From contig CAZNDZ010000001.1 of assembly GCA_964572155.1 (NCBI GenBank), forward strand, positions 1,146,786-1,210,785: a stretch of DNA of 64,000 nucleotides. Direction: 5' to 3'. Below are positions 169 to 54,324 of this stretch, piece by piece; the first letter of the stretch is position 1; the number at the start of each line of letters is the position of its first letter. The notes under the pieces were generated by a model, which was not told where the DNA came from, searched no databases, and worked only from the letters and a program-made list of their open reading frames with translations. The position numbers were made by a program, and so were the translations under genes. The stretch is from an uncultured Planctomycetales bacterium (GTDB lineage Bacteria > Omnitrophota > Gorgyraeia > Zapsychrales > Fredricksoniimonadaceae).

Positions 169-174
169 TTCCAC

Positions 175-30640: not shown

Positions 30641-30940
30641 ATGGCTTCAAAAAAAGTCGCTAAAGTTGGGGTAAAGAAAGAAAAAGGTTATCTTTATTTC
30701 GTAGACAAACAAGGTGACATCTCTGCTGCTAAGATGGCTCGTGGGGATAAAAAAGGTGGATCTCCTAAAAAAGTCGCTAAAGTTGGTATCAAACGTGAAG
30801 AAGGTTACTTATACTTCATCGATAAACAAGGCGATATCTCTGCCGCTAAGATGGTTCGCGGTGGCACCAAGAAAAAAGCTAAATCTGCTGCTAAAAAGCC
30901 AGCTAAAAAAGCTGCAAAGAAAACAGCAAAACGTAAATAA
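30641..30940 (+). CDS. Small lysine-rich protein of 99 aa: two tandem 32-aa repeats (KKVAKVG.K.E.GYLYF.DKQGDISAAKM.RG) plus a KKAAKK histone-H1/Hc1-like tail.
   Basis: Good SD (AAGGGGTGG). Strong terminator immediately downstream. The repeat copies differ mostly at synonymous sites. Confidence 0.65.
   Translation: MASKKVAKVGVKKEKGYLYFVDKQGDISAAKMARGDKKGGSPKKVAKVGIKREEGYLYFIDKQGDISAAKMVRGGTKKKAKSAAKKPAKKAAKKTAKRK
30650..30862 (+). repeat. Intragenic tandem duplication: a 96-bp unit at 30650-30745 and again at 30767-30862, about 80% nt identity, separated by a 21-bp linker.
   Basis: Direct comparison of the two DNA segments and their translations. Confidence 0.7.
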
Positions 30941-30958: not shown

Positions 30959-30999
30959 CAACAACCCCTGTATTTTACTATACAGGGGTTGTTTTTTTT
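30959..30999 (+). terminator. Strong rho-independent terminator: 13-bp perfect stem AACAACCCCTGTA / TACAGGGGTTGTT, 8-nt loop, T8 tract.
   Basis: Read directly. A TATAAT at 31003-31008 follows and may be the uvrA -10. Confidence 0.8.
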
Positions 31000-31016: not shown

Positions 31017-33815
31017 ATGAATCAGTCCGATGCTATCATTATCCGTGGCGCCAAAGAACATAATTTAAAGAACATTGACCTAACGATCCCACGCAATCAA
31101 TTTGTGGTCGTCACAGGTTTAAGTGGTTCTGGAAAATCCTCCTTAGCGTTTGATACCATTTATGCAGAAGGTCAGCGCCGTTATGTCGAGAGTTTGTCAG
31201 CATATGCGCGGCAATTTTTGGATCAAATGCAAAAGCCGCATGTTGAACATATCGAGGGCTTGTCTCCAACCATATCGATTGAACAAAAGACAGTTAGCCG
31301 TAATCCACGTTCTACCGTTGCCACTCAAACAGAAATTTATGACTATCTGCGTTTGTTATTCGCGCGTGTAGGTATTCCGCATTGCTACCAATGTGGCAAA
31401 CGCATTGAACAGCAAAGCGCTCAAGAAATCGTTGGTCATATCTTGGCGTTGCCAGAAGGCAGCAAGATCAATATTTTAGCCCCAATGGTGCGTGGGCGTA
31501 AGGGTGAGTACCGCGACATCGGCGCCCAAGTGACTAAGGCGGGTTTTGCACGTTTGCGTGTTGATGGCAAGATGTTTGAAGCCTCTGACGATATCAAGCT
31601 TGATAAATTCAAAGTCCATCACATTGAAGCGGTGGTTGATCGCTTGAGCATTCGCCAAGATATTAAGAAACGTTTATTTGATTCTGTTGAGACTGCCCTT
31701 AAAATTGGCGAAGGCATTTTGATGGTGGATTTTAATGGGAGTGCGCCAGATAAAACATTTAGTGAAAAATATGCCTGTGTTGATTGTGGCACATCCTTAA
31801 GTGAAATTGAACCACGCATATTTTCATTTAATTCGCCTTATGGAGCTTGCCCTCAATGCAATGGCCTTGGCACCATGATGGAGATTGATCCTGCCGCGAT
31901 TGTGCCAGATGATACTAAGCCTTGGACGACGGCGATTGTGCCTTGGAAAAAGGGGCAAGGCGGTTACATGATTTACTACCGCGCGGTATTGCGTGAAATT
32001 GCCGGCCGTTTTCGCATTGATTCCAAGTTGCCATTTAAAGATTTAGATAAAAAATTTAAACATGTCGTCTTGCATGGGTCAGAAGACATTGAAGTTTGGG
32101 GTCGTCCTTTCGAAGGGGTTGTAAAATATTTAGAACGTTTATTTAGAGAAACGGACAGTGATTGGTTAAAAGAAGAAATTTCTACCTATATGTCCGAATC
32201 AGCATGTTCATTATGTGCGGGTAAACGTTTAAAGAAAGAATCTTTAGCTATTACTGTGGGAGATCAAAACCTTGCCGATGTGGTGGAGCTTTCTATTAAA
32301 GAATGTAAGCATTTCTTTAACGAGCTTACCTTAAGTAAAGACAAAAAGAAAATTAGCGAAGAGATTTTGAAAGAAATCAATCGACGCTTAGATTTTTGTA
32401 TCAATGTAGGTTTGGAATATTTAACGCTTGATCGTCGTAGTTCAACCTTGTCCGGCGGCGAGGCTGAACGTATCCGTTTGGCAACTCAAGTAGGTTCAGG
32501 GTTAGTTGGCGTTATCTATGTTTTAGATGAGCCAAGTATTGGTTTGCATCAACGTGATAATGATCGATTATTGTCAACCTTACATGCCTTGAGAGATCTA
32601 GGCAACACCTTGATCGTTGTTGAACATGACGAAGACACCATCCGGCGTGCAGATTATGTCATTGATCTAGGCCCTGGGGCTGGTGAAGGTGGTGGCGAGG
32701 TCTTATATGCAGGTGATGTCAAAGGCATCCTCAAATGCAAGAAATCCCTAACGGGGCAATATTTAAGTGGCGAATATAAAATACCTGTCCCTGCAAAGAG
32801 ACGTGCAGCCATTAAAGATCAATATATAAAAATTATAGGCGCTAGCGAACACAACTTAAAAAATATAGATGTGCAAATTCCTCTAGGAACGTTTACCTGC
32901 ATTACTGGCGTATCTGGGTCGGGTAAATCAACCTTGGTTGAAGACATTTTATTTAAAGCCCTATCGAATAAAGTCATGGGGACCAAGGCAAAAGCAGGTG
33001 CTCATAAAAAGATCACAGGTACGGAGCATATTGATAAAGTCATTGTCGTCGACCAATCACCGATCGGTCGTACGCCACGCTCTAATCCAGCAACGTATAC
33101 AGGGGTGTTTTCTGATATCCGTGATATCTTTGCACAATTACCTCAGTCAAAAATGCGTGGGTATAAGCCAGGTCGTTTTAGTTTTAATGTCAAGGGTGGA
33201 CGTTGTGAGGCGTGCGGTGGTGATGGGATTAAGAAGATTGAAATGCATTTCTTACCTGACGTGTACGTGGAATGTGAAATTTGCCATGGTAAACGTTTTA
33301 CGGATCAAACTTTGGAAGTTGAATTTAAAGGCAAGAACATCGCCCAAATTTTAGACCTGAGTGTAGAGGAAGCCTTAGGTGTTTTTGATAGTGTGCCACG
33401 CATAAAGAATGTGTTACAAACATTACACGAAGTTGGTTTAGGTTATATTTGCTTAGGCCAAAGCGCGACAACCTTGTCGGGTGGTGAAGCGCAGCGAGTT
33501 AAATTAGCAAGTGAGCTTTGTAAACCAGCCACAGGAAAAACATTTTATATTTTGGATGAACCCACAACGGGCTTACATTTTGCCGACGTTGATAAATTGT
33601 TGCAAGTGATGCAACGCCTCGTTGATCGAGGCAATACCGTTTTGGTCATTGAACATAATTTGGACATTGTTAAATCAGCAGACTACATCATTGATTTAGG
33701 GCCTGACGGTGGTGACAAGGGCGGACAATTGATTGCCAGCGGTACGCCAGAAGCCATCATGCAGGTGACACATTCTCATACAGGAAAATACTTAAAGAGA
33801 TTTTTAGAAAAATGA
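31017..33815 (+). CDS. uvrA: Excinuclease ABC subunit A
   Basis: Two ABC modules ([18 protein letters not shown]), zinc-finger cysteines, LSGGE signatures, 932 aa. Confidence 0.95.
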
Positions 33816-36253
33816 AAATAAAAATATTCTTAACGGCATTGTTTTGTTCGTTTTCATTAATAGTCTTTGCACAAAGTGATCCAGATGAATTAATCACGAC
33901 GGCACAAAGAGCATTTGATGATGGCTTTCATGATGTGGCTATTAAATATTTAGAGGAATTTGTACCAGCTTATCCTCAAAATCCCAAAATATCTCAAGCG
34001 AAGGTATTGCTTGGGCAATGTTACTTTTTAAAAGGTAATTATGCAAAAGCCATGGAAATGTTCGAACAATTAGCAAATCAAAAAGAAAATAAAGACATGG
34101 TTTTGTTTTGGACGGCAGAGACGCAATTAAAATTATCGAACTTTCCAAGAGCTCAAGAGCTTTACCAAGATTTGCTTAAAAGTTTTACTAACTCTGTTTA
34201 TGTTCCTCAGGCTTTGTATTCTTTAGGTTGGTCGTATTTTGATCAAAAGCAGTATGCCAGCGCTAAAACCATGTTCGCTAAATTAACAGCCCAATTTCCT
34301 AAGCATCAATTAAGCGAAGATGCTTTGGCAAAATCTGCGGAATGCGATTACAACTTAGGCAATTTTGCAGATGCCATTAAGGCGCTCGAAAATTACCAAC
34401 AAAGCTATCCAACTAGTTCACGCTTAGGGTCAATCCGATTAAATATCGCTGATGCTTATTATTACATGGATGATTATGCGCATGCCATGGATTATTATGA
34501 TCAATCAGCAAAAACAGTTACGAGTGATCCTGCAACGGTGCATGCTGCCAACGTCGGTAAAATCTGGTGTGCCCTAAAACGTAAAATGTATGAACAAGCT
34601 CAAAAGTATATTAAAGAAGCATCTGATTTTGCAAAATCTAAAAATTTAAGCACTGAAAACATTTTGTTAGCTTCTGGGCAAATGTATTTTGAAAAAGGGG
34701 AGATGGATCAAGCGGTTAATGCGTATAGTGATTTGATCCGTGCTTACCCCACAGGTGATTATAGGTTAGAGGCATATTTAGGGCGAGCCAATGCGCTCTA
34801 TGAAGATAAAAAATACAATAAGGCTCAAGTAGATTTTCAATTTGTTATCGATCATCATCAAGAAGCGGACGTAGATTTGGTCGATAAAGCCAATTTTGGT
34901 TTGGGGTGGGTTTTGGTAAAAGCGGGCGATGTAACGGCAGGTATTCGCTGTTTTCAATCGGTGTATGAACGCACCAACAACGATATGATAAAAAATAATG
35001 CCTTAATTCAAATGGCAGATGCATATCAAGAGGGCGGTCGATTTAATGATGCCATTGGCATTTATGAGAAGATCAATAAAACAGGCTCAGCCAATGGTTT
35101 GGAAGATTATATTCAATACCGTCTAGGGGTTGCATTATTAAAAGCTGAAAAATTTGAATTGGCTCAATCGGGTTTTGACACCTTGGTCAATAAATATCCT
35201 AATAGCCGATACTTAGAAGACGTAAATTACTACCTCGGTGTGATTCAATTTAAAAGTAATAATTGGAACAAAGCTGCGCAGTACATGGATGCATTCCTCA
35301 AGGCCTTAACACATCCAAGTGAGTTTGCACCAGAAGCTAATTATATCTTAGCGTTAGCATATTTAAATTTAAAGCAAAGTGATGAAGCATTAAAAATATT
35401 TCAAAAAATTCTGCGCTTATATCCCGACGATGAGGATGTGGCTAAAAATTCTGATATTGGTATTGCCAAGTGTCAATTTGAATTAGGGCAGATTAAAGAC
35501 GCTATTAAGCGATTTAAATTGATCATTTTTAAGTACCCCAAATCAGATGTAGAGCAGGAAGCTTTATTATGGTTAGCACAAGATGCTATGAAAAATTTTC
35601 AATACGCGCAAGCCATTGATTATTACCATACTTTGCTTGATCGCAATCTTGATCCATCTCATCAGGACCAGATTAATTATGAGTTGGGTCAAGCCTATGA
35701 AGTTCAAGGCGCATTAGATGAGGCATTAGCGCAATATAAATCAGTAAGTGATAAGGATGAAGTTTTAGCATCGAAAGTAAAACTAGCCATTGCAGGCATA
35801 TTATCTAAAGAGTTTGATCCACAAAAAGCTATTACAGCGTATGCGAACATTGCTAGCACCAGCCCTGATTATGCGCGTGATGCTTATTTAAAGATGGCGC
35901 AATTATATCGCAATGCACAAAATTATGAGCAAGAGATAACGGTTTATGAAAAAGCGTTGAAATGCGATCAGGGTAAATCTGTAGTAACCAATGTAGAGCT
36001 TTTATTTAGTTTAGGGGATGCCTATGAATCATTAGACCGCATCGAAGAAGCCGTAGATTATTATTTAAAAATTCCAACCCAATATCATGATCAGACCACA
36101 TGGGTGGTTAAGGCTTATTTACGGGTTGCAAAAATTTTTGAAGATCGCAAGGATTGGGAAGGGGCTCGTGTAACATATCAGAAAATTGTGCAGTTAAAAG
36201 TTGATGAATCAAAATTTGCTTTAGAACGATTAGATTTGTTAAAAAAGAAATGA
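33812..36253 (+). CDS. Large secreted or lipoprotein-like tetratricopeptide-repeat protein of 813 aa. Signal peptide [20 protein letters not shown].
   Basis: Many TPR-like 34-aa A/Y/L-rich repeats across the protein. ATGA overlap with the uvrA stop. Confidence 0.6.
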
Positions 36254-36260
36254 GGTAAAA

Positions 36261-36938
36261 ATGAATGTAGTCATGATGAACGCGGGCCAGATTTTGTTTA
36301 AAGGTGGCCCCATGATGTGGCCGATCCTGTTCTTATCTATCCTTGCAACAGCGATCGCAATTAATCGCATTATGTTTTTAAGTCGTGAGGAAAAAACTTT
36401 CACGCAGCAGCACAAGCTACTGTTGGAATCTTTACGAAAAGGAAATTTAAAAGATACGCTTAAGATGTGTGAGGCCAATGAAGGCGTCGTCGCAAGCCTG
36501 ATAAAATCAGGGATAATACGCTCTGGATCTTCGACAGAGTTGATTCGTTTAGCGATGGATGAAGTTTGGGATCATCAGAAAATGCGTTTTAATAGTTTCA
36601 TGTCGATCTTAGGCATGATTGTTAATGTGGCGCCACTTCTAGGTTTGCTTGGGACGGTGAATGCCATGACGGTGGTTTTTCATGCGTCGGTGATCCGATC
36701 CAATGTTTTAAATCCTGTGACGGCAGGGGAATTGGCAACGGGTATTTGGCAAGCATTGTTGACAACCACCGCAGGTCTTGTGGTTGGAATATTCGGTTAT
36801 GTCATGTATACATTTTGTGTGGCGCGCATCAACGTTTATACAACATGGGTTAATCACTTGATGGTTGAGACAGTCTATGTATTGGCTTCACTTAAAGAAT
36901 TAAAAGCATCTGCAGGTCAGGGAGAGTATGAAGGTTAA
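36261..36938 (+). CDS. MotA/TolQ/ExbB-family proton-channel protein
   Basis: GGPMMWPILFLSILATAIAINR N-terminus, three TM segments and the LGLLGTV motif typical of ExbB/TolQ. Confidence 0.75.
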   Translation: MNVVMMNAGQILFKGGPMMWPILFLSILATAIAINRIMFLSREEKTFTQQHKLLLESLRKGNLKDTLKMCEANEGVVASLIKSGIIRSGSSTELIRLAMDEVWDHQKMRFNSFMSILGMIVNVAPLLGLLGTVNAMTVVFHASVIRSNVLNPVTAGELATGIWQALLTTTAGLVVGIFGYVMYTFCVARINVYTTWVNHLMVETVYVLASLKELKASAGQGEYEG

Positions 36939-37323
36939 TACATTACAAGCTCCTACAACAGTATTTTCGCCCATTCTGATCATTGCCTTTATAAATTTTG
37001 TGATCTTGATGTTGGCTTTTGTTGTGTTCTATTCATTCTTTGCGACGCCAGCTGGTATTGAAATCCAAATGCCGACAGTAGCTGCACGTACAGCTTCAAT
37101 AGGAGGTACGTTAACAATACGCATTAATGCTGAGAACGTATTATTCTTAAATGACAAGGTTGTGACGCTAAGCGATCTAAGAAAAAGTTTATTGAAACTA
37201 AGTACACCGAATCAAACATTGTATGTTCAAGTAGACAGTCGAGCATCCATGGCGCGTGTTGCTGATGTCTGGGAGATGTGCAAAGGTTTAGGTGTGGCAC
37301 AAGTAAAAGTGAGTACTTTCTAA
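36928..37323 (+). CDS. ExbD/TolR-family biopolymer transport protein
   Basis: Single N-terminal TM segment then a periplasmic domain with ExbD-like layout (PTVFSPILIIAFINFVILMLAF; TLYVQVDSRASMARVADVWEMC). 131 aa, overlaps exbB. Confidence 0.7.
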   Translation: MKVNTLQAPTTVFSPILIIAFINFVILMLAFVVFYSFFATPAGIEIQMPTVAARTASIGGTLTIRINAENVLFLNDKVVTLSDLRKSLLKLSTPNQTLYVQVDSRASMARVADVWEMCKGLGVAQVKVSTF

Positions 37324-37568
37324 TGTTAAGCATTGGTAAAACAACCCTCATTGCTCTAGCACTGCACATCATCGTATTTTCATTCATTTGGATTGGTTTT
37401 CCTATCATTCGTGTTAAAGACAATGTGGTGTTTTATTACAGCCAAATGTCATTGCAGGATCCAACAGATGATATTATTTTTAATGATCATATGCCAATCA
37501 AGGCTGGCGGGTCGTCGGATAGTCAGGTTTGGAAGCAATTAAGAATGTTAGATAAGCCTAAGAGGTAG
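37323..37568 (+). CDS. Small membrane-anchored protein of 81 aa with a His-containing TM helix (LIALALHIIVFSFIW), reminiscent of the TonB/TolA signal anchor but lacking the C-terminal domain.
   Basis: TAATG overlap with the exbD stop. Hydrophobic N-terminus. Confidence 0.4.
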   Translation: MLSIGKTTLIALALHIIVFSFIWIGFPIIRVKDNVVFYYSQMSLQDPTDDIIFNDHMPIKAGGSSDSQVWKQLRMLDKPKR

Positions 37569-37570
37569 TC

Positions 37571-37795
37571 ATGTTTATTTGGGATTTTACAGCACTGTTT
37601 GCCGTTTGGGGATTTTTATTTCTAACCATTGTTTTGTTGATGTGGGTGTTCTATACTTTAAGGAGAGCCAAACCACTGGCTGTGTTTAAAGATGTAGAAA
37701 ATTTTAGGCACTGTGTTTATTGCGGTTATGTTTACTTAGATTACTTCAAAGCGGATGTGTGTCGATGTCCAAGATGTTTCAGTTATCATGATTAA
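37571..37795 (+). CDS. Small membrane protein of 74 aa with a C-terminal C4 zinc ribbon (CVYCG...CRCPRC)
   Basis: N-terminal TM segment. Two CxxC pairs 15 aa apart. Tight spacing in the operon. Confidence 0.4.
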   Translation: MFIWDFTALFAVWGFLFLTIVLLMWVFYTLRRAKPLAVFKDVENFRHCVYCGYVYLDYFKADVCRCPRCFSYHD

Positions 37796-37803
37796 AGGTG
37801 ACC

Positions 37804-38127
37804 ATGAGATTAAAAAGATTGCATAATGATTCAGGGATGGTTTTAGTAACGGTTGTTATGATCGTTTTTGTCATGTCATTATTGCTCACGGCCATTTTAA
37901 GTCAAAACTTGAGTCAAGCATCTGTAACGCAAGCACAAATCGATGAAATTAAAGCGAAACAATTGGCCATTGGGGCATTTTGGAAAGCCCAAGCAGATAT
38001 GACCAATGTTGCTGGTAACCCGACAGCTGTGGCAGCAGAGAATCTAGATGGTAAAACCTTTACTGTGGCAGTTGATCCTCGTCCAGCAAGTTCTGCGGCA
38101 GCTTATACAGTCACCGTTTCATATTAA
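37804..38127 (+). CDS. PilX-like minor pilin / pilus assembly protein with an N-terminal hydrophobic segment (GMVLVTVVMIVFVMSLLLTAIL)
   Basis: AAAGGTG SD before the ATG at 37804. N-terminal domain resembles PilX_N. 108 aa. Confidence 0.45.
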   Translation: MRLKRLHNDSGMVLVTVVMIVFVMSLLLTAILSQNLSQASVTQAQIDEIKAKQLAIGAFWKAQADMTNVAGNPTAVAAENLDGKTFTVAVDPRPASSAAAYTVTVSY

Positions 38128-38189
38128 TATATATAAGATAGTTCAAATGAAGATTGACATTTGCCCTCAGTGGAGGTGTAATATTTCCA

Positions 38190-39722
38190 ATGGCAAGTGG
38201 CAAGCGTATAGGATTCTATTTATCAGAGTCCAAATTCTATTTTGTTGAATCTTCCGATAATAACCTATTGCGGGTTATTGCTTCTTTGCCATTTCTTTCC
38301 GCAGAACAAAATTCTTCAGAAGATGTTCGTTTGATTGCTTCAATTCAAAAAACAATGCGCGAGCAAAACATCAATCAAAATGATGTGCGTTTTGCCATTC
38401 CTCAATCAGAAGTCATCATCCGTTCATTCTTAATCCCTGTGATGAAGCCAAGTGAGCTTAACGCGGTGGTCGATTATGAATTAAGAAAGCATATCCCATT
38501 TGATTTAAAGGAGTTTACGTATACATTTAATACCATAAACGTCGTCGATAATAAGGTAAAGAAGTTAAGGGTTTTGGTGTCTGCTGCCAGACAATTGTTA
38601 TTGGAGCGGCATGAGCAGATTTTAAATCAGGCAAAATTAAATGTCATTGTGAGCGAACCAGCCCCATTTGGTTTGGTCAGGGTATTGTTTGCTAAGAAAG
38701 TTATTAGTCCTTCAGCGCGTTTTGCGCTTGTTCATATAGGGCAAACGGTGGGTCGTATTTTATTTGTGCATGAAGGCATGGTTTTGTTTATCCGTGAATT
38801 TCAACTCAATCAAGGTGACATTCAGACCGATGCCCAACAAGAAGAAAATTTATTCAAGGCCCGTTTTGTCAACGAAATCCAAAACTCATTAGACTTCTTT
38901 ACCCGTGCCCATGAGCAAATGGCTGTGCAACAAATCATTATTTTAAGACAAGGTGATGAGAGGCCCTATGAGCAATGGTTGCAAGATGAAGTTACAATTC
39001 CTAAGAAAGTCGTTGATGTCACCGCATTGATTGGAACTCAGAATCCCGAAGACACGTCAGGTATTTTATACGCTTTTGGGGCATCATTAGCAGATCCAAG
39101 ATCGCCAACTATTTTTAATTTATCGCGTAAAGCTATTAAGAAAGCACCTGCGGTTAGTTTGTTGCCGGATGTTGATTTTAAAGAATATATGACCGCGATC
39201 AAGACAGCGGTTGTTGCGGTTGTTCTGTTGGCTTTGTTGTATTTCTTGTTTGCTTATAAAACATCTGAGTTACAAAAGACAAAAGATAGTTTAAGTTTAC
39301 AACAAGGTAATATGGCTGATCTTGCCACGGAAGATATTCAAAAGAAAGTCGATAAAAATAAAACGCGGTTAAAACAATATCGATCTATCGTAATAAAAAA
39401 TAAGGTCACTGATATCTTTGTAGATATAGGCAAGAGTATTCCTAAGGGTTTGTGGTTGACAAATTTGAATATTCGAAGCTTGGTGACCTCTGTCAAAGAG
39501 GGTGATGTATTAATTGCAAAAAGTGGATGGGAAGTTGCGTTTAATGCGATTGTTTATAACAAAGATCCGAATCAAGAAATACGCATTGTGAATACATTCA
39601 TGAGCAAGTTAAAGAAAGATAAACGCTTGGCGGAATTCTTTAAGAATGTCAGTTTGGTGAGCATGTTTCAACAAGAAATTAATGGTCATAAGGTTGTCTT
39701 AATCAATGTGAAGTGTAATTAA
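38190..39722 (+). CDS. Type IV filament assembly protein: a PilM-like actin-fold cytoplasmic domain fused via one TM helix (AVVAVVLLALLYFLFAY) to a PilN-like periplasmic domain. The architecture is GspL-like.
   Basis: Domain order read from the translation: about 330 aa cytoplasmic, then a TM, then about 150 aa of coiled-coil and periplasmic sequence. Alternative TTG start at 38154. Confidence 0.55.
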   Translation: MASGKRIGFYLSESKFYFVESSDNNLLRVIASLPFLSAEQNSSEDVRLIASIQKTMREQNINQNDVRFAIPQSEVIIRSFLIPVMKPSELNAVVDYELRKHIPFDLKEFTYTFNTINVVDNKVKKLRVLVSAARQLLLERHEQILNQAKLNVIVSEPAPFGLVRVLFAKKVISPSARFALVHIGQTVGRILFVHEGMVLFIREFQLNQGDIQTDAQQEENLFKARFVNEIQNSLDFFTRAHEQMAVQQIIILRQGDERPYEQWLQDEVTIPKKVVDVTALIGTQNPEDTSGILYAFGASLADPRSPTIFNLSRKAIKKAPAVSLLPDVDFKEYMTAIKTAVVAVVLLALLYFLFAYKTSELQKTKDSLSLQQGNMADLATEDIQKKVDKNKTRLKQYRSIVIKNKVTDIFVDIGKSIPKGLWLTNLNIRSLVTSVKEGDVLIAKSGWEVAFNAIVYNKDPNQEIRIVNTFMSKLKKDKRLAEFFKNVSLVSMFQQEINGHKVVLINVKCN

Positions 39723-39724
39723 CC

Positions 39725-40333
39725 ATGTTTGATCTTGAAAAACTAAAGAATTTTGATTATCAAAATATTGACTATAAAAAGTTATTAGAAACGCTTTTGA
39801 CCAAAAAAGATTTATTTGCATCGGTCATTATCGGTGGCGTTGCGCTTGTTTTACTCATAGGTTTGGCCAAGAATTTTTTTAGTCAAACAGCATCCATTAA
39901 TTCAGAAATTTCTTTGTTAAAAACAAAAATCGACGTGATTGCTGATTATGAGTCGAGCCATAAGCAGATCACAAAATTCCTAAAATCTGTTCCGTCGCCG
40001 TTAGACGAGGATTTGTTTTCTACAACTATTGCCGATATGGCTGCGACGAATAATGTGACGATTGTGTCATTTGTGCCGGGTGTAAAAAAAGAAGAAGAGC
40101 TTTCTAATACAATTTCAGCTGCGTTTGAGATTGAGGTTTTGAATTATCAGTCGTTGTTAATGTTTTTAAGTGCCCTTGAGAAAGCGCCACTGGCATTGAG
40201 GGTTGATAATTGTGTTGTAACAAATGCATCAACTCGAAACAGCATGATGGATGATATTAAAAAGAATCAAGACAAAGACCAGCAAACAATTTCAGTTCAT
40301 TTAGATTTAAGTTCTGTTGAGTTGAAAAAATGA
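39725..40333 (+). CDS. pilO: PilO/GspM-like inner-membrane assembly protein
   Basis: Short cytoplasmic N-terminus, one TM (VIIGGVALVLLIGL), then a coiled coil and C-terminal domain. Position after the PilM/N fusion. 202 aa. Confidence 0.5.
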   Translation: MFDLEKLKNFDYQNIDYKKLLETLLTKKDLFASVIIGGVALVLLIGLAKNFFSQTASINSEISLLKTKIDVIADYESSHKQITKFLKSVPSPLDEDLFSTTIADMAATNNVTIVSFVPGVKKEEELSNTISAAFEIEVLNYQSLLMFLSALEKAPLALRVDNCVVTNASTRNSMMDDIKKNQDKDQQTISVHLDLSSVELKK

Positions 40334-40767
40334 TAAAGATATTCTTATATAGCATTTTGTTCTCTACGCTTCTTTTGAGTGGTCGTGTTCAGGCAGAAGA
40401 GGATCGTGCCGTTGATACGCCCTTGGAAGATGATGTGGTTGATTTTCTAAAACTCGAAAATCCATTCTTGTCGCAATTACCTAAACAACAAATAATTAAA
40501 ACACCTGTTGAACAACCGAAACAAACAGATAATAATGTAAATAAGTTATTTAATGGAATACCACCCATTGAGCAAACCCCTGTGCTTTTACCAAACTTTG
40601 ATATTCAAGGTGTGGTATATGGGGTTAAAGATCCACAGGTCATTATCAATGACCAATCGTATGGGCTAAATGAATATGTGTTGGGCGCTCAAATTAAATC
40701 AATTAGTAAAAAAGGCATAACATTCTTATTTGGTGGGAGGGACTTTAGTGTTGCATTGGACAATTAA
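40330..40767 (+). CDS. pilP: PilP-like periplasmic protein with a signal peptide
   Basis: Signal peptide, low-complexity linker, C-terminal beta-domain (IQGVVYGVKDPQVIINDQSYGLNEYVLGAQIKSI). Lies upstream of the secretin. Confidence 0.5.
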   Translation: MIKIFLYSILFSTLLLSGRVQAEEDRAVDTPLEDDVVDFLKLENPFLSQLPKQQIIKTPVEQPKQTDNNVNKLFNGIPPIEQTPVLLPNFDIQGVVYGVKDPQVIINDQSYGLNEYVLGAQIKSISKKGITFLFGGRDFSVALDN

Positions 40768-42271
40768 GATAACGGTGCTGTTTTTATTAATTTTTCTTAT
40801 CCCTAATCAGTTTATTCTGGCAAGTTACGACTTGGCGGATAGCCATTTTATCAATCCTAAATTTTCTAAAAAGATTTCACTCGATTTTAAGAATGCCCCC
40901 TTGACGGAAGTGCTGAAAGTGTTTTCAAAACAAGCAGGCATGAACTTTGTTGCAAAAGTTGATATAAGCGCGATGCGTGTCACGATGTACCTAGACAATG
41001 TGCCTGTTGAAGAAGCGTTGGAGTATGTTTTGAGTTCTAATGATTTACAGTCAGAAGTGTTGACCGATGATAATACTTTTGCTGTTTCAAAGAAAAAAGA
41101 TACAAGTGCCCGAATGGTAACAAAAGTATTTAATCTAAAGCATGCTTCAGTGACCACATCTGCACTAAAAAATACGTTTTCATCATCTTCGTCATCGTCT
41201 TCTTCGTCTTCCTCATCATCTTCATCTGGTTCATCAGATGCTTTTAGTGTTGCATCGTTGGGGGGGATAGTTGATGCGGTTAAGATGGTGCTTACAAAAA
41301 ATGGCAGTTTAGTTGAAGATTCTAGAACTAATAGTTTGGTGATTACGGATTTAGAGAGTCAAATGCCTCTTATAGAAGAGACAATTAATAAGTTGGATGT
41401 TGTTGTTGCCCAAATTCTCATAGACGTAGATATGTTAGATATTTCAAAAGCAACATCAGACTTAATGGGCGCGAAGTGGGGAGATACAATATTTAATTTT
41501 CAAGGTGCGGCTAAGAACTCCGTCTTGCCTTTTAATGAATCAGCAATTTTAAAAAATGGTAAAGCAGATTTAACCTCGACATCTATTGGAACATTAAGCG
41601 ATAATTCAGGGGATAGTCCATATTCTGCAGGTAAGGTTGATTTTACAGGTATGAATGTGATTATGAATTTCTTAAGAACACGTACGGACACCAAGAACCT
41701 CGCTCGTCCAAGAATTCTAACATTGAATAATCAAATGGCTCAAATTCAAGTTTCTGCAAATGAAGCTGTTGGTACTAAAACCAATAATTTCTCAAGTACA
41801 AGTACAACGTCGAGCGTTGAAGCAGAACGTACGCAAACTGGTGTTTTTCTAACGGTGACGCCACAAGCAGATCTAGAAACACGAGAGATATTAATGGCAG
41901 TATATCCAAAAGTCATTCAGTCTCGAACTGGTGCGACGTTTGGTTCAACAACATATAAAGATGCTGAAGAGCGTGGTACAAAATCATTCTTGCGCGTCAA
42001 AGATGGAGAAACAATCATTTTAGGTGGCTTGCTACGTAACGATGATTCAAACACCATTACCAAAGTTCCTTTCTTAGGTGATATTCCTTTTCTAGGAAAT
42101 GCTTTTAAACATAAAAATCTTCAAGGAACAAAACGAGAACTAATTATTTTCTTAACCCCACATATCTTAGATGATTATCGCAGTTATCAAGATCAAATCA
42201 AGATGCATACGCCTCAGTTCCGTTGGGATGAAGTCAACAAAGCCATCGCTGAGATAGAAAAAGAAAACTAA
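40730..42271 (+). CDS. pilQ: Secretin of the PilQ/GspD family. The start is a TTG or GTG codon between 40730 and 40751. Contains a 16-residue poly-Ser tract.
   Basis: C-terminal secretin motifs (ETIILGGLL, VPFLGDIPFLGNAFK, LIIFLTPHIL). Secretin_N-like repeats. 513 aa. Confidence 0.85.
   Translation: MVGGTLVLHWTIKITVLFLLIFLIPNQFILASYDLADSHFINPKFSKKISLDFKNAPLTEVLKVFSKQAGMNFVAKVDISAMRVTMYLDNVPVEEALEYVLSSNDLQSEVLTDDNTFAVSKKKDTSARMVTKVFNLKHASVTTSALKNTFSSSSSSSSSSSSSSSSGSSDAFSVASLGGIVDAVKMVLTKNGSLVEDSRTNSLVITDLESQMPLIEETINKLDVVVAQILIDVDMLDISKATSDLMGAKWGDTIFNFQGAAKNSVLPFNESAILKNGKADLTSTSIGTLSDNSGDSPYSAGKVDFTGMNVIMNFLRTRTDTKNLARPRILTLNNQMAQIQVSANEAVGTKTNNFSSTSTTSSVEAERTQTGVFLTVTPQADLETREILMAVYPKVIQSRTGATFGSTTYKDAEERGTKSFLRVKDGETIILGGLLRNDDSNTITKVPFLGDIPFLGNAFKHKNLQGTKRELIIFLTPHILDDYRSYQDQIKMHTPQFRWDEVNKAIAEIEKEN
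41180..41236 (+). repeat. Serine tract ((TCN)16 GGT TCA TCA) inside the secretin gene.
   Basis: Read directly. Encodes S16-G-SS. Confidence 0.9.
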
Positions 42272-42277
42272 TATTTT

Positions 42278-44008
42278 ATGGCCCGCGCCCGCTTAGGTGA
42301 AATATTAATCAAGCAAGGCTTGGTTACCGAGAAGCAGCTGCAAGAAGCGATCAATGCCCAGAAAATTCAAAAAGCGCGCATTGGTGATGTTTTGCTTAAG
42401 TTAGGCATGATCAAAGAAGAGGATTTGGCAGCGGCGCTCGGTGCTCAGTTGTTAATCCCGTATGTCACCTATATGTCAGGTCTACTTAAGCCCAAGCAGG
42501 GCCAAGGCCTTGAAACTATCATTCCCCACGAGTTTGCTCAAAAAAACATTATCTTACCACTATCACGCAATGGTAATTCTTTAACATGTGCCGTATATGA
42601 TCCATTGGATTACTTGCTCCTTGATAACTTAAAGATTTTAACCAATTGTGAATTAAATCTAGTTATTGCCACTCGCAGCGATTTAGTGAAAGCCATCAAA
42701 GAGTTTTATTTGTTTGATGGTGGTTCTGAGAATAAAGGTGGGTTGTTAGATAAGGCTGTTGAGAGTTCATATGATTTTGATGCAGGAAATCCAGCGCCGA
42801 TAACATCAACATCGTCGGGAGATACTGAGCTTAGCATTGACAGCCTTGTTGCTAAAGCCGAAGAAGCGCCTGTTATTAAGCTAGTTGATTTGATCATTCG
42901 ACAAGCCATCGATGAGAAAGCCAGTGATATTCACATTGAGCCCTTCAAGGATAAAATTGAAATTCGATATCGTATCGACGGTGTTTTATATCAAATCCCA
43001 CCACCGGCAAATCATTTGCATTTACCCATAGTGTCGCGTATCAAAATTCTATCTAAAATGGATATTGCAGAGAAGCGTTTGCCTCAAGATGGTGCTATTT
43101 CAGCAAGACTGGAAGATCGTACGGTAGATTTGCGTGTGTCTACATTGCCCACGGTGTGGGGTGAAAAAGTTGTTTTGCGTATTTTGGATAAAGGTGCAAC
43201 AAAACTAGAACTTAGCCAATTAGGTTTTGATCAAAAACAATTGGGTTTAATTCGCAAAGCCTTGGAGTCTTCTTATGGTTTAGTTTTTGTCACGGGACCA
43301 ACAGGTAGCGGTAAATCAACCACCTTGTATTCAACGCTCAATGAAGTGCTTGACCCAACGAAGAATATCATGACAGCTGAAGATCCTGTTGAATTTAAAA
43401 TCGAAGGAATTAATCAAGTTGGGGTACGCAATGAAATTGGCTTAACCTTTGCAACCGCTCTTAAAGCATTTTTACGTCAAGATCCCGACATCATCATGGT
43501 CGGGGAAGTCCGTGATATTGAGACCGCGCAAATTTGTGTGCGTGCCGCTTTAACAGGTCACTTGGTTCTAAGTACATTACACACCAATGATGCGCCTTCG
43601 GCTGTAACCCGTTTGGTTGACATTGGTGTTCCTTATTATTTATTAACTCCTTCTTTGTTGCTCGTTATTGCGCAACGCTTGGCACGGAAATTATGTTCTA
43701 AATGCAAAGAACCCTACGAAGCTGCCGGCCAAATGGTTGGTGAATACAAGATCAAGGCGGATTTGATTTACAAAGCCAAGGGTTGTGAAGAATGTAATCA
43801 TAGTGGTTATAAGGGGCGTGTTGTTATTTCAGAAGTTATGTCATTAAATGATGAGATTAGGCGTTTAATGGCTCAAAGCGGCGCATATAGTGACATTCGA
43901 GATGCGGCTAGAAAGAACGGCATGGACACTTTATTTGAATCTGGGATGAAAAAAGTTGAAGAAGGTGTAACAAGTCTGGATGAAGTCTTAGGCATTGTTG
44001 CAGATTAG
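42278..44008 (+). CDS. pilB: Type IV filament assembly ATPase (PilB/GspE family)
   Basis: Walker A GPTGSGKSTT, Asp box, His box, tetra-Cys zinc motif (CSKC...CEEC), N-terminal GspE_N-like domain. 576 aa. Confidence 0.9.
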   Translation: MARARLGEILIKQGLVTEKQLQEAINAQKIQKARIGDVLLKLGMIKEEDLAAALGAQLLIPYVTYMSGLLKPKQGQGLETIIPHEFAQKNIILPLSRNGNSLTCAVYDPLDYLLLDNLKILTNCELNLVIATRSDLVKAIKEFYLFDGGSENKGGLLDKAVESSYDFDAGNPAPITSTSSGDTELSIDSLVAKAEEAPVIKLVDLIIRQAIDEKASDIHIEPFKDKIEIRYRIDGVLYQIPPPANHLHLPIVSRIKILSKMDIAEKRLPQDGAISARLEDRTVDLRVSTLPTVWGEKVVLRILDKGATKLELSQLGFDQKQLGLIRKALESSYGLVFVTGPTGSGKSTTLYSTLNEVLDPTKNIMTAEDPVEFKIEGINQVGVRNEIGLTFATALKAFLRQDPDIIMVGEVRDIETAQICVRAALTGHLVLSTLHTNDAPSAVTRLVDIGVPYYLLTPSLLLVIAQRLARKLCSKCKEPYEAAGQMVGEYKIKADLIYKAKGCEECNHSGYKGRVVISEVMSLNDEIRRLMAQSGAYSDIRDAARKNGMDTLFESGMKKVEEGVTSLDEVLGIVAD

Positions 44009-44020
44009 GGGTAAGGCTTT

Positions 44021-45244
44021 ATGCCAATGTTTTCATATGTAGCTAAAGATTCTAGTGGTAAGACCAAGAAAGACATGGTGGAATCTTTAAATGAGCAAAC
44101 CCTCATTGACCGATTGCAAAATGATGGGTATTTTATCATTTCAATTGCACCCGCGATTCAAAAAGAAGCACCAAAATCTGACCAACCAAAAGTTCAAGTA
44201 AGAAAATTCTCGCACAATAACGTTACACTAGAAGATCAGCTTGTTTTTGCCAGACAATTGGCAACCATGTTGGATTCAGGTGTTACGTTGATGCGTTCAT
44301 TAACGGTTATTGTGGATCAGGTGGAAAGTAAGAAGCTTTACGAGATCATCACGGATTTACGGAATAACGTTGAGCAAGGTAAAACGTTAAGTAGTTCTGT
44401 CGCTAAATATCCAAAAGTATTCTCTCAATTTTGGGTTAGTTTGATTGAAGTTGGGGAAGCGTCCGGTACCATGCCGATGGTTTTAGAGAAATTAACACAA
44501 TATACTGAACAGCAAGCCGCATTTAGATCAACCATTGTTTCTGCGCTTGTCTATCCTGGGGTTCTTTTTGTGATTTGTATGGGGGCGATCGTCTTTTTCG
44601 CATTATTTGTGGCGCCACGATTTGAAACAATTTTTACAACCATGCACGTTGAGCTTCCAGGATTAACGGTAGTTTTATTATTTGTTTTTAAGTTTGTAAA
44701 ATCAAATTTTCTCTTAATTATCGGAGCTTTTGTAGGGGCCTACTATTTTATAAAACAGTATTTAAGTACTCATTTGGGTAAGTTAACGTTTGAGCGGATC
44801 ATGTTTAATATGCCTGCTGTCGGTAAGATTTATAAGTTAATCATCGTTGAACGTTTTGCTGCACAAATGGCGATTCTCGTTGATAGTGGGGTACCTATCC
44901 TGTATGCCTTAGAGATCACGGAAAAATTAGTTGAGAATATCACCTGTTCTGTAATCGTGGCTCAAATTCGTGAGGCTGTGCGTGAAGGTAAGCTGTTGGC
45001 TGACCCAATGCAAGAAAGTGGGTTTTTCCCATCTATGGCGGTGCAAATGATCAAAGTAGGGGAAGAAACAGGTCAGCTTGGAAAAATGCTCAAACATGTG
45101 GCTGAATTCTATGAGCGTACAGTCCAAGAGTTTATGAAACGCATTGGTACAATCATTGAGCCAGTCATGCTTGTTTTTATGGGTGGAATCATTGGGACCA
45201 TTGTTTTGGCTATGTTCTTGCCAATGTTTAGTTTAACAGGCTAG
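44021..45244 (+). CDS. pilC: Inner-membrane platform protein (PilC/GspF family)
   Basis: Duplicated GspF domain with three TM segments, 407 aa, follows the ATPase. Confidence 0.85.
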   Translation: MPMFSYVAKDSSGKTKKDMVESLNEQTLIDRLQNDGYFIISIAPAIQKEAPKSDQPKVQVRKFSHNNVTLEDQLVFARQLATMLDSGVTLMRSLTVIVDQVESKKLYEIITDLRNNVEQGKTLSSSVAKYPKVFSQFWVSLIEVGEASGTMPMVLEKLTQYTEQQAAFRSTIVSALVYPGVLFVICMGAIVFFALFVAPRFETIFTTMHVELPGLTVVLLFVFKFVKSNFLLIIGAFVGAYYFIKQYLSTHLGKLTFERIMFNMPAVGKIYKLIIVERFAAQMAILVDSGVPILYALEITEKLVENITCSVIVAQIREAVREGKLLADPMQESGFFPSMAVQMIKVGEETGQLGKMLKHVAEFYERTVQEFMKRIGTIIEPVMLVFMGGIIGTIVLAMFLPMFSLTG

Positions 45245-45456
45245 GGCCAAAGCCCAGCGTAGCCAAAAGTAAAACATTACTGGCGAAGCTGGGTTGCAGA
45301 GGGGCAAAAAATATGTTATATTCGTTGCATAGTAGAAGTAATGATGATATAAAAACATTGTATAAAGGTAAACTATCCGCAAGGGTGGGGCACAAAGCTA
45401 TAGGGCCTGTTGATATAGGACAGGCAGCCAGTTACCAATGGAAAGCTGTAATGTGC

Positions 45457-45545: not shown

Positions 45546-45992
45546 ATGAAATTAAGTAATAAACGCAATCAAGGGTTTACACTCATAGAAATCATCATCG
45601 TTATTGTCATCTTAGGTATCTTAGCAGCTATTGCCTTGCCAAAATTGACAGAAAACATTGACCGTGGTCGCGCAGCAGAAGCCTTCTCAATCGGTTCCTC
45701 TGTAGCTAAAGCATTTGATCGTTGTTTATCTGTTGAAACAGGTGGTGCAACGCCAAGTTCAACAAATGTGGGTAATTGTAATTCATTTGCTAAAATTAAT
45801 ATGGCAACACCTCCAGCCACTAATTTCACGTATTCTTTAGCTAGCTCTGGTACAACCTTGACATTCGGTGCTGTTGGCGCTTTCACTGGTGCTGCAGCAG
45901 CGGATTCAATCACATTTACATTCGTGGGTGATACAGGTGTTACAACAAGAACCTGCGGTACAGCAGGTAAGTTTGACAAAATGTGTAAATAG
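45546..45992 (+). CDS. pilA: Major type IV pilin / pseudopilin with a class III signal peptide (MKLSNKRNQG|FTLIEIIIVIVILGILAA)
   Basis: Prepilin peptidase site G|FTLIE with Glu+5, hydrophobic N-terminal helix, Ser/Thr/Gly-rich C-terminus. AGGAG SD. Confidence 0.85.
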   Translation: MKLSNKRNQGFTLIEIIIVIVILGILAAIALPKLTENIDRGRAAEAFSIGSSVAKAFDRCLSVETGGATPSSTNVGNCNSFAKINMATPPATNFTYSLASSGTTLTFGAVGAFTGAAAADSITFTFVGDTGVTTRTCGTAGKFDKMCK

Positions 45993-46020
45993 TTGAGTAC
46001 TGTTTCTTTCTTAGTGTGGT

Positions 46021-46055
46021 ACACGGGGCGAGTTTAACTCGCCTCGTGTTGTTTA
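46021..46055 (+). terminator. Hairpin downstream of the major pilin gene (12-bp stem ACACGGGGCGAG / CTCGCCTCGTGT, 5-nt loop) with a weak T-tract. Probably a partial terminator.
   Basis: Read directly. Confidence 0.4.
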
Positions 46056-46079
46056 GAGTGCAATAATCGAGGAGTATGT

Positions 46080-46505
46080 ATGTCTAAAAAGGGTTTTACG
46101 ATCATTGAAGTCATTATCGTTGTTGTCATGTTGGGCATCTTGGCCGCTGTTGCTATACCAAAAATCCTTGCCCCTAATGAAATAGTGATTTCATCTGAAG
46201 GGCAACATACGCTAACTGTTTTGTTAAGTGCTCAAAAAAGATATAAGTTAGAGAATAGTGCGTACACCACAACATTAGACAACCTTGATGTTTCCATAAC
46301 ACCAAAGTATTTTGACACGGTCACGGCATTAGATGGTTCGAGTGCAAAGACAGAAGTGGCGTCGCTTGCACGGATAAGTAATTTGGTATACACGCTGTCT
46401 ATTGGTGCGGAAGGTGCCAATGCAGGGATTATCTATTGTTCTGGTGCGGGTTGTACCTCTATTAAATGTACTAAAGGTGCGGGGAGCAATCAATGCAATC
46501 TATAA
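46080..46505 (+). CDS. Pilin-like protein 2 (MSKKG|FTIIEVIIVVVMLGILAAVAIPKI)
   Basis: Prepilin N-terminal motif and GAGGAG SD. 141 aa. Confidence 0.8.
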   Translation: MSKKGFTIIEVIIVVVMLGILAAVAIPKILAPNEIVISSEGQHTLTVLLSAQKRYKLENSAYTTTLDNLDVSITPKYFDTVTALDGSSAKTEVASLARISNLVYTLSIGAEGANAGIIYCSGAGCTSIKCTKGAGSNQCNL

Positions 46506-46918
46506 AAGCTTTTACAATGATTGAGCTGATCATGGTGGTTGTCATTATAGGTATGATGGCGCTGTTTGCTGTGCCAAATTATAATAAGTCTGTTGGTAAA
46601 ACATACGAGAAAGCGGGATCCAATAATCTATTAATCATGTATTCGGCGCAGAAGATTAAAAAGATTGGCGGGGAAAATTATCAGGCATGTAACAGTACAA
46701 GTACCTGTAATACGAATTTAAATTTGAGTCTTATCGCAAACGGTGTTGATTATTCCTGCACCACAACGGGTGGAGGAACGCCAACGGGCTTTTATTGTTA
46801 TGGGAATCGCTCGGATAATTCATTTAAGTTAAAAATAACAGAAACAGGTGGCACACCATGTTGTTGTACGGCAAATACGTGTCCATCAATCACCACAACT
46901 TGTGCAAGTTGTCCGTAG
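46493..46918 (+). CDS. Pilin-like protein 3 with a cysteine-rich C-terminus (MQSIKA|FTMIELIMVVVIIGMMALFAVP)
   Basis: Prepilin motif with Glu+5. 9 Cys in the last 90 aa, including CCC. 141 aa. Confidence 0.7.
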   Translation: MQSIKAFTMIELIMVVVIIGMMALFAVPNYNKSVGKTYEKAGSNNLLIMYSAQKIKKIGGENYQACNSTSTCNTNLNLSLIANGVDYSCTTTGGGTPTGFYCYGNRSDNSFKLKITETGGTPCCCTANTCPSITTTCASCP

Positions 46919-46925
46919 AAAAAAT

Positions 46926-50957: not shown

Positions 50958-50999
50958 GCATTGAATCTTAGAAGTTAAATCAGTTCTTGGTCAGATTAT

Positions 51000-54260: not shown

Positions 54261-54324
54261 GCATCTTTATGGTTGAATGCTTGTTATATAAAAATTCTTT
54301 TGTTACGATATGTTTTTAATATTT

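Follow-up and report, generated by a model that had tools for sequence, protein, structure and literature searches.

A Ton-type ExbB/ExbD module without the membrane aspartate, conserved upstream of a type IVa pilus cluster in Omnitrophota

The window analysed here is a 64,000-nucleotide (nt) stretch of contig CAZNDZ010000001.1 (positions 1,146,786 to 1,210,785 of GenBank assembly GCA_964572155.1), from an uncultured bacterium placed in the phylum Omnitrophota. From 31 kb to 47.9 kb its plus strand is a gap-poor run of open reading frames (ORFs) that extends from uvrA through a set of prepilin genes (Table 1). Between uvrA and the first filament gene lie five ORFs, together called the module below: those for a large tetratricopeptide repeat (TPR) protein, an ExbB/TolQ-like protein, an ExbD/TolR-like protein and two micro-proteins, the second of which carries a zinc ribbon. 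An initial annotation of this DNA had proposed this anatomy, and all of the ORFs, including the filament genes, were found on the plus strand. Both micro-ORFs are real genes, with position and motifs conserved in about 50 related loci. The genes had further been described as lying within 10 nt of one another, a spacing that holds for most of the string and fails at the junction between the PilX-like and PilM genes, which measures 26 nt with a TTG start or 62 nt with a likelier ATG at 38190. Such tight packing is general here: 10 nt is not exceeded at 37 of the window's 54 gene junctions, and the median is 1 nt. The hairpin just upstream of uvrA is the sole convincing terminator-like site ahead of the pilin genes; terminator-like and promoter-like matches inside the uvrA-to-pil string stayed at background level, and no terminator-like site parts exbBD or the gene for the 74-aa protein from the pil genes, a result in support of the initial annotation.

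Table 1. Features of the module and its surroundings in the window
Feature	Position	Strand	Remarks
uvrA	31017-33815	+	UvrA-type sequence assigned by eye (no family scan); first gene of the gap-free string
813-aa TPR protein	33812-36253	+	4-nt ATGA overlap with uvrA
ExbB/TolQ-like 5:2-motor A subunit, 225 aa	36261-36938	+	PF01618
ExbD/TolR-like B subunit, 131 aa	36928-37323	+	PF02472; 11-nt overlap with the ExbB ORF
81-aa TonB remnant	37323-37568	+	ATG shares one base with the ExbD stop (TAATG)
74-aa membrane protein with C4 zinc ribbon	37571-37795	+	one transmembrane segment, CxxC...CxxC
PilX_N-type minor pilin, first filament gene	37798-38127	+	alternative ATG start at 37805
Type IVa pilus/type II secretion system-like assembly genes	38154-45244	+	family matches
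c-di-GMP-I riboswitch aptamer	45357-45439	+	59 bits (gathering score 35)
Five prepilin-type genes (major and minor pilins)	45546-47872	+	
Strong terminator-like hairpin	30960-30993	+	14 pairs and a T run; just 5' of uvrA

The ExbD-like protein matches PF02472 over residues 18-130 (59.1 bits, cut-off 25.4; E 6e-16). A single-sequence phmmer search of the PDB with this protein gave no match at E up to 1, and a family profile was required; the profile matched ExbD at 116 bits (6e-33) and TolR at 54 bits (1e-13), the ExbD score being inflated by an E. coli ExbD sequence included in the underlying alignment (A2), a circumstance of which the column correspondence is independent. When 30 ExbD-like proteins were aligned with E. 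coli ExbD, Asn23 of the window protein (codon AAT, 36994-36996) shared the column of E. coli Asp25, and the profile aligned to the ExbD of PDB 6TYI sets its Asp position opposite D25. The transmembrane (TM) Asp for which the initial annotation had proposed a check, an essential proton-binding residue in characterised ExbD (D25), TolR (D23) and MotB (D32), is absent, with Asn23 in its place. Apart from any alignment, the first 43 residues of the window protein are free of D and E, as is the 30-residue stretch holding the TM segment in the window and in 24 related loci. The periplasmic domain is kept, as is the PsiXPsiX(L/M)P linker motif (NIBS), present as IEIQMP at residues 44-49, of which P49 is nearly invariant. 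Within the Ton system, D25 has been called the only residue that could respond to protons, and ExbD D25N is a well-characterised inactive mutant that is unresponsive to the proton-motive force (PMF) (bioRxiv 10.1101/797811). A review of 5:2 motors lists a conserved mid-membrane Asp in MotB, TolR and AglQ/S and reports the use of MotB D22N as a protonation mimic (PMC9389320). Our literature search found no description of natural ExbD/TolR homologues that lack the TM Asp.

The substitution is neither confined to the window nor uniform. A HMMER scan of 1.84 billion cluster representatives recovered only 348 ExbD relatives at E up to 1e-3, and in the best 150 of these the D25 column holds N in 65, D in 58, S in 8, G in 5, H in 2 and T in 1, with 10 fragments. 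Of the non-Asp variants, five (G, S, S, H, N) were examined on their contigs, and each has the context of TPR, ExbB, ExbD, TonB-like and Zn-ribbon genes; pil-type or pil-linked genes follow downstream in four of them, and the fifth contig ends after a DUF2582 gene. The canonical PL(I/V)DV was read in the loci from outside Omnitrophota (Deltaproteobacteria, Thermodesulfobacteriota, Nitrospinota, CSSED10-310, Ignavibacteriales and others), with the exception of two Verrucomicrobia loci, L067 and L074, that carry Ser and Gly, so the loss of the Asp is not specific to Omnitrophota. On a rough UvrA neighbour-joining tree the Asp and Asn states are intermixed, which argues for several independent replacements; the pattern-based calls used with this tree mislabelled L037 and L042, whose ExbD is of the Asp type by direct reading.

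The ExbB-like protein matches PF01618 at 74.5 bits (cut-off 22.9; E 8e-21), and a profile of its family matches the solved TolQ at 64 bits and the solved ExbB at 41 bits. Its pore residues Thr132 and Thr169 (ExbB T148/T181; TolQ T145/T178), the surroundings of which align with the TolQ motifs GTV and ATA(I)GL, are invariant in an alignment of 21 ExbB sequences (A1); in the Asn-type loci Thr132 is kept in 35 of 35 and Thr169 in 32 of 35, and both are also kept in Asp-type loci. The acidic residue of TM3 is absent, Gln164 replacing ExbB E176 and TolQ E173, with GIWQAL aligned to GIAEAL of TolQ. The Thr and Glu to which the initial annotation had pointed in TM3 therefore part ways, the Thr being retained and the Glu lost. 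Gln164 is also found in relatives with an Asp-type ExbD and hence is not diagnostic alone, and the genome loci were picked with a pattern that contains it. Ser26, the counterpart of the TM1 Ser that contacts TonB or TolA, is invariant in A1, and W38 and P190 of E. coli ExbB are not conserved in the window protein. A compensating acidic residue was sought in the ExbB TM segments of the Asn-type loci, and none was found. The only ExbB position that covaries with the Asp/Asn state of ExbD is residue 191 (36831-36833), just past TM3 and presumably cytoplasmic, which is Asp in most Asp-type loci and Asn in most Asn-type loci.

The slot between the ExbD and Zn-ribbon genes always holds a protein with an N-terminal TM segment. 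In the clade of the window this protein has 78-90 aa, in intermediate lineages about 145-165 aa and in loci L038, L041 and L042 219-258 aa. The long forms contain TonB_C (33, 39 and 27 bits, respectively; cut-off 24.6), the 150-165-aa intermediates gave no domain match, and the 81-aa protein of the window had no match in Pfam even at E up to 1, so that it carries no TonB_C (PF03544). Because the same slot holds TonB_C proteins in deeper Omnitrophota, the 81-aa protein is a TonB orthologue and, judged by its position, a truncated TonB. The initial annotation had likened it to a TonB/TolA-type His anchor without an output domain, which its positional orthology with TonB_C proteins bears out; the accompanying label of a TonB-less system is inexact, in that a TonB remnant is present. 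The statement that it has no periplasmic domain applies to TonB_C and not to the tail of about 50 residues that follows the TM segment, which is predicted to be periplasmic and is devoid of a Pro-rich spacer.

Three blocks persist in the short forms in about 25 loci: the TM His followed by (V/I)W(V/I)GF, a strand-like F.Y.G block and a C-terminal tail. The TM His is His15 of the window protein, within ALALHIIVF, and is conserved in most orthologues, with Tyr instead in a few (L011, L046); of the SHLS motif of TonB only the His is kept, Ala, Ile and Phe standing in for Ser, Leu and Ser. The strand-like block, VVFYYSQ in the window, is alternately hydrophobic and lies 20-26 residues past the His. 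The tail follows the consensus (F/Y)..W(I/L).(L/M)R...KP and reads W..LR..DKPKR in the window. In E. coli, TonB S16 and H20 touch ExbB S34 and W38, and the D-box strand of TonB, 25-31 residues after H20, binds the periplasmic dimer of ExbD (PMC12215075). In the stub, those parts of TonB that dock to the motor appear to be kept, and the spacer and output domain to be lost.

Two further partners accompany these genes. The N-terminus of the 813-aa protein resembles a signal peptide by eye, and the protein is presumably periplasmic. It is a solenoid with about ten TPR units of the YbgF/CpoB or BamD type, matched by TIGR02795 at 228 bits summed over 10 stretches of its 813 aa; the full-length CpoB model (263 positions) scores 81 bits against a cut-off of 383, meaning that the repeat type agrees and the architecture does not. 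In the 74-aa protein the four Cys of CxxC...CxxC are invariant in 23 orthologues, and by the positive-inside rule the zinc ribbon would be cytoplasmic. Its family comprises at least 592 proteins, a Pfam domain being precomputed in almost none (3 of 120 listed have a Zn-finger-type match), and its members are named only "hypothetical" or by generic automated labels. The gene always lies 3' of the TonB-like gene in Omnitrophota and Verrucomicrobia. The conserved acidic residue 5 of this protein was considered as a substitute for the missing Asp and rejected, being equally present in Asp-type lineages.

A genome scan limited to one genome per species yielded 80 loci, in which gene order was mapped by tblastn. 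The order uvrA-TPR-ExbB-ExbD-small ORF-Zn-ribbon ORF-PilX-PilMN-...-secretin-ATPase-PilC recurs in 33 of them, with ExbB identity down to about 30%, so the TPR-exbB-exbD-pil order of the initial annotation is conserved in relatives. Where the source is named, the relatives of the ExbB-like protein come from Candidatus Omnitrophica/Omnitrophota metagenome-assembled genomes. About ten other Omnitrophota loci have the core uvrA-TPR-ExbB-ExbD-TonB-like-Zn-ribbon without adjacent pil genes. The synteny with uvrA, the function of which is unrelated to the module, nevertheless reaches Verrucomicrobia: L061 has uvrA, the TPR gene, ExbB, an ExbD ORF and the Zn-ribbon gene, L066 has uvrA, the TPR gene and ExbB, and in L057 and L067 a Zn-ribbon gene lies downstream of ExbB. 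The module is taken as ancestral in Omnitrophota and related bacteria of the Planctomycetes-Verrucomicrobia-Chlamydiae (PVC) group. Loci without adjacent pil genes continue with DUF2582 and CutA-like genes and then with rsmE and a miaB-like gene, and in the window the pilus cluster and a low-GC island are placed between the Zn-ribbon gene and rsmE (54479), which gives cluster and island together the look of an insertion into, or a rearrangement of, a conserved backbone. The genes 5' of uvrA, for dapB, an aminotransferase, folK (HPPK), panC, aspartate dehydrogenase and a 99-aa protein (orf99), are collinear in the same loci. Because conserved order and tight spacing mark the whole region, the adjacency of exbBD and pil genes is weak evidence of a shared function, and synteny as proof of a coupling to the pilus was rejected on the ground that the block from dapB to uvrA is conserved alongside. 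Several basal loci, among them L041, L082, L084, L085 and L056, have, between the Zn-ribbon gene and the pil genes, extra small genes that the window lacks and that encode a DUF2582 winged-helix protein and an HTH_17 (excisionase-like) protein. L038 and L041 additionally encode an 89-119-aa protein with a conserved GWWSAVVLV motif. A PilX_N-like pilin gene lies near the Zn-ribbon gene in L056, where assembly genes are missing, and also in L041.

The pattern of divergence fits retention of the module under selection rather than decay. The window was compared with L002, its closest long relative, in terms of identity and nonsynonymous divergence (dN), as synonymous divergence (dS) was saturated. 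The TPR protein is the best-conserved member (75% identity), followed by ExbD (63%), ExbB (61%), the Zn-ribbon protein (53%) and the stub (36%). The corresponding dN values are 0.18 for the TPR protein, 0.30 for ExbB, 0.28 for ExbD and 0.62 for the stub, against 0.26 for PilMN and 0.23 for the secretin; the module as a whole (0.18-0.35, with the stub at 0.62) is comparable to PilMN, PilO and the secretin. About 50 loci have the ORFs intact, and across the clade this is true of all five module ORFs.

The module belongs to the known 5:2 complexes of the Ton, Tol and Poc type, and what is surprising about it is that the Asp was lost recurrently in nature, that TonB was pruned in stages and that two conserved, uncharacterised partners are present. 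It shares with E. coli ExbB-ExbD-TonB the ExbB and ExbD Pfam domains, the exbB-exbD-tonB gene order, the pore Thr residues, the TM1 Ser of ExbB, a TonB-type TM His, the PsiXPsiXLP motif of ExbD and a D-box-like strand at a similar distance from the His. It differs in the changes of D25 to Asn and E176 to Gln, in ExbB W38 and P190, in a TonB of 81 aa with neither Pro-rich spacer nor TonB_C, in the lack of a TonB-dependent receptor among the window ORFs scanned and in the addition of the TPR and Zn-ribbon proteins. The likeness to Tol-Pal with CpoB/YbgF lies in an A subunit that scores higher on TolQ than on ExbB, a clustered TPR protein built of YbgF/CpoB-type units and the His-containing anchor that TolA also has. 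In contrast, TolA domains II/III, TolB and Pal are lacking among the scanned ORFs, the equivalent of TolR D23 is Asn, the TPR protein has 813 aa and about ten units as opposed to the 263 positions of the CpoB model, and the B subunit scores higher on ExbD than on TolR, subject to the inflation of the ExbD score described above. Like AglRQS, MotAB, ZorAB and GldLM, the module exemplifies pairs of the MotA/ExbB and MotB/ExbD families recruited beyond TonB-dependent transport, and unlike AglRQS and the other 5:2 motors it has no ionisable residue in the axle helix. ZorB keeps the Asp, and GldL carries a Glu. The closest chemical parallels are the laboratory mutants ExbD D25N and MotB D22N/D32N, which have the same change at the same position and assemble, the former being unresponsive to the PMF and the latter serving as a structural mimic of the protonated state; unlike these, the substitution described here is natural, fixed, recurrent and kept across a large clade, with S, G, H and T in relatives.

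We place a probability of about 0.5 on the reading that the module is a Ton-derived inner-membrane complex that would assemble but could not run the canonical protonation cycle, and that would be kept, together with the TPR protein, as a static scaffold or anchor. Such a complex would be expected to assemble without cycling protons because the docking parts are kept while the Asp and TonB_C are lost. Its components would be a periplasmic TPR solenoid, an ExbB-like pentamer-forming protein, an ExbD-like axle protein, a TonB orthologue and a Zn-ribbon membrane protein. The energy-transduction chain would have lost its input through the replacement of the ExbD Asp, the proton carrier of each motor of this class so far characterised, by Asn and of the ExbB/TolQ Glu by Gln, and its output through the shortening of TonB to 81 aa without the TonB_C domain that grips outer-membrane partners. 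The parts that would hold the complex together, namely the pore Thr and TM1 Ser of ExbB, the TM His and D-box-like strand of the stub and the linker motif of ExbD, are those retained. We picture an ExbB pentamer around an ExbD dimer, with the TonB stub at the periphery and the Zn-ribbon protein as a further subunit, and the conserved C-terminal peptide of the stub as a plausible ligand of the TPR protein. Purifying selection would then retain the complex as a scaffold or anchor and not as a PMF motor; from its sequence, the module probably cannot work as a proton-driven one. On the precedent of PocAB-TonB3, the adjacent type IVa pilus machine would be the leading candidate client, for which the window itself offers an adjacency that does not discriminate.

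Several observations pull the other way. The retention of the pore Thr and of the PsiXPsiXLP switch motif could equally mean a dynamic or ion-coupled function by an unrecognised route. An Asp-bearing ExbD/TolR that co-assembles with the module, or a full-length TonB/TolA, may be encoded elsewhere in the 1.34-Mb genome. The D25 column, which is mostly D or N, would also fit the need for an Asp-shaped hydrogen-bonding side chain in a machine that still moves. Gene identities, the shortening series of TonB, the missing Asp and the conservation are established; we infer that the complex assembles, lacks proton coupling and acts as a scaffold, that the stub peptide touches the TPR protein, and how the 74-aa protein is oriented.

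In 5:2 rotary motors, the proton carrier regarded as defining and universally conserved is the membrane Asp found in MotB, ExbD and TolR. Here, a large clade found in nature has repeatedly put N, S, G, H or T in its place, with the channel-lining Thr and the genes conserved, and has pruned TonB stepwise from about 250 aa through about 150 aa to about 85 aa, which together would amount to a natural experiment on 5:2 complexes unable to cycle protons; the analysis also identifies a Zn-ribbon membrane protein and a giant TPR protein as conserved, uncharacterised partners. A bolder extension, which we regard as quite unlikely, is that the module stands for a distinct class of 5:2 "pseudo-motors", present across the phylum Omnitrophota and in related PVC bacteria, with a mechanical link to the type IVa pilus machine. 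Each would consist of an ExbB-like pentamer, a non-ionisable ExbD-like axle (N, S, G, H, T), a TonB stub, the Zn-ribbon subunit and the giant TPR protein, and would act either as a static stator or anchor or as a rotor driven from the cytoplasmic side, for instance via the Zn-ribbon protein and the PilB/PilM layer.

Among the alternatives, the one that survives best is an organiser dedicated to the adjacent type IVa pilus (T4aP) that, whether or not it uses the PMF, installs, positions or stabilises the secretin and PilMNOP complex in the manner of PocA-PocB-TonB3 of Pseudomonas aeruginosa; we consider it unlikely. The latter is also an ExbB/ExbD/TonB-homologous set, and its role is not nutrient uptake but control of the production and placement of type IVa pili and the flagellum. 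The Poc genes are not known to be adjacent to pilus assembly genes, and TPR and Zn-ribbon partners, present in the window, are not described for the Poc system. PocAB-TonB3 is required for T4aP production and polar localisation, with a contact between TonB3 and PilQ's N0 domain suggested (PMC5285504), and TonB2 is reported to affect natural transformation in Acinetobacter (PMC8811193). An organiser of this kind would agree with the position of the module directly 5' of pilus genes in 33 related loci despite gain and loss of small genes (DUF2582, HTH_17) at the junction, with the lack of a terminator-like site between the 74-aa gene and the pil genes, with the PilX_N-like pilin gene kept in basal L056 and L041 and with a weak STN/N0-type match of the secretin (26 bits, below the cut-off). 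However, the conserved block also includes dapB, panC, folK and uvrA, which makes its synteny non-discriminating, and tight junctions are the norm in the window. Moreover, about ten Omnitrophota loci, and Verrucomicrobia too, have the module with no pil genes beside it, the adjacency goes back to just one or two rearrangement events on the rough UvrA tree, and the tie to PocA and PocB is drawn from described function. The module adjoins a pilus system by which ultra-small, host-dependent Omnitrophota are believed to attach to their hosts; a role in the pilus would carry the PocAB-TonB3 link, itself poorly understood, into another phylum, and without such a role the module would caution against inferring function from operon-like packing in streamlined genomes.

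A canonical Ton or Tol system might instead be completed in trans by a full-length TonB/TolA and/or an Asp-type ExbD/TolR encoded elsewhere, which would energise TonB-dependent receptors or a Tol-Pal-like function and leave the 81-aa protein a dispensable relic. The main genomics paper on Omnitrophota describes type IVa pili in almost every member and, beside some pilus clusters, F-type ATPases, and never mentions TonB, ExbB or TolQ, and a 2026 preprint mentions TonB-domain proteins in passing only; in line with the initial annotation, which knew of no record of the arrangement, our literature search found no description of it in Omnitrophota. Two Omnitrophota lists of KEGG orthology (KO) terms in the source data of Seymour et al. 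contain exbB, exbD, tonB and the TonB-dependent receptor K02014, and tolQ, tolR, tolA, tolB and pal are absent from both. Because these lists hold both the Ton genes and a receptor, the ancestral role of the module was probably genuine TonB-dependent transport. Completion in trans gains from these KO entries, from the full TonB_C protein in the stub's slot in deeper relatives, from the YbgF/CpoB-type units of the TPR protein and from the higher score of TolQ than of ExbB with the ExbB profile. Against it, no such partner was found among the scanned ORFs of the window, the tol and pal KOs are absent from the two lists examined, and a stub that keeps three conserved motif blocks across about 25 loci is not relic-like. 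Asn-type ExbD is, moreover, dominant-negative in the systems studied. Its inactivity there is documented (bioRxiv 10.1101/797811). Overall we give completion in trans little likelihood.

The initial annotation had favoured a PMF-driven ExbB/ExbD stator that energises the pilus filament or the secretin, by comparison with AglRQS of Myxococcus. This proposal draws on the uninterrupted string of ExbB/ExbD homologues and pil genes, the conserved gene order and the conserved pore Thr of ExbB. Against it stand Asn23 of ExbD (S, G, H and T in relatives), at a position where D25N abolishes PMF responsiveness in E. coli (bioRxiv 10.1101/797811) and a mid-membrane Asp is conserved in MotB, TolR and AglQ/S (PMC9389320), as well as Gln164 of ExbB and the lack of a compensating acidic residue in the ExbB TM segments; given also that tight packing is normal here, that the module occurs without pil genes and that the synteny argument is non-specific, we judge it very unlikely. 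Functionless decay on the way to loss in a reduced genome, to which the lost residues and domains, the fast evolution of the 81-aa protein (36% identity and dN 0.62 relative to L002) and the apparently small genome (1.34 Mb, the longest contig carrying this ExbB) could point, is the least credible of all in view of five intact, syntenic ORFs across a clade with ExbB identity down to about 40%, a TPR protein 75% identical to that of L002, dN values comparable to those of pilus structural genes, four invariant Cys in the Zn-ribbon protein and the conserved motif blocks of the stub.

The pilus cluster downstream comprises PilM, PilN, PilO, PilP-like, secretin, PilB-type ATPase, PilC and prepilin genes, that is, a T4aP/type II secretion system-like machine, and neither PilT nor a prepilin peptidase was found among the window ORFs scanned. 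Its assembly genes encode a PilM-PilN fusion, a PilO/GspM-like protein, a GspC/T2SSB-like protein, the secretin, a PilB/GspE ATPase and PilC/GspF. The riboswitch aptamer occupies the 301-nt gap from pilC to the first pilin gene and sets the pilins apart as a regulatory unit of their own; both of the closest relatives checked also have it (L002, 19115-19197; L004, 9347-9422), and it was not detected in six more distant loci. Since the PilB ATPase has an MshE-type N-domain that binds cyclic di-GMP (c-di-GMP), c-di-GMP would seem to control the pilus at two levels. The secretin (40730-42271) has 16 serines followed by GSS (19 residues, at about residues 151-169) between its N-terminal domains, and its STN/N0-type match is sub-threshold (26.2 bits, cut-off 28.4).

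Beyond the pilins lies the low-GC island (47869-54400), with a GC content of 0.30-0.35 compared with about 0.41 and a strongly negative AT skew. It contains a gene for a PMT_2-type glycosyltransferase (47869-49278), two genes whose products bear TPRs at the C-terminus (49278-50957 and 52788-54260) and one for a 595-aa protein without a family match (51000-52787), ends at a tRNA gene (54325-54398) and may be a horizontally acquired island for surface or pilin glycosylation. Among the ORFs scanned, the rest of the window consists of housekeeping genes, nearly all on the same strand, for isoprenoid, fatty-acid, arginine, lysine, folate and pantothenate synthesis, together with recA, recX, alaS and his genes. 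The initial annotation's remark that no TonB, TolA, Pal or flagellar gene lies nearby agrees with the scanned ORFs of the 64-kb window, a subset of the total, among which there was no TonB_C, TolA, TolB, Pal, TonB-dependent receptor or flagellar gene. At its start, the window carries an ORF of 693 aa (157-2238, plus strand) that gave no Pfam match at E up to 1e-4. Directly 5' of uvrA in every case, orf99 (30641-30940, plus strand) encodes a basic protein of 99 aa without a Pfam match, made up of two copies of a repeat of roughly 40 aa (consensus KVAKVG.K.E.GYLYF.DKQGDISAAKM.RG) and a Lys/Ala-rich tail. With 76-98% identity in most related Omnitrophota loci it outdoes UvrA in conservation in the closest relative, and it may be a nucleoid-associated protein.

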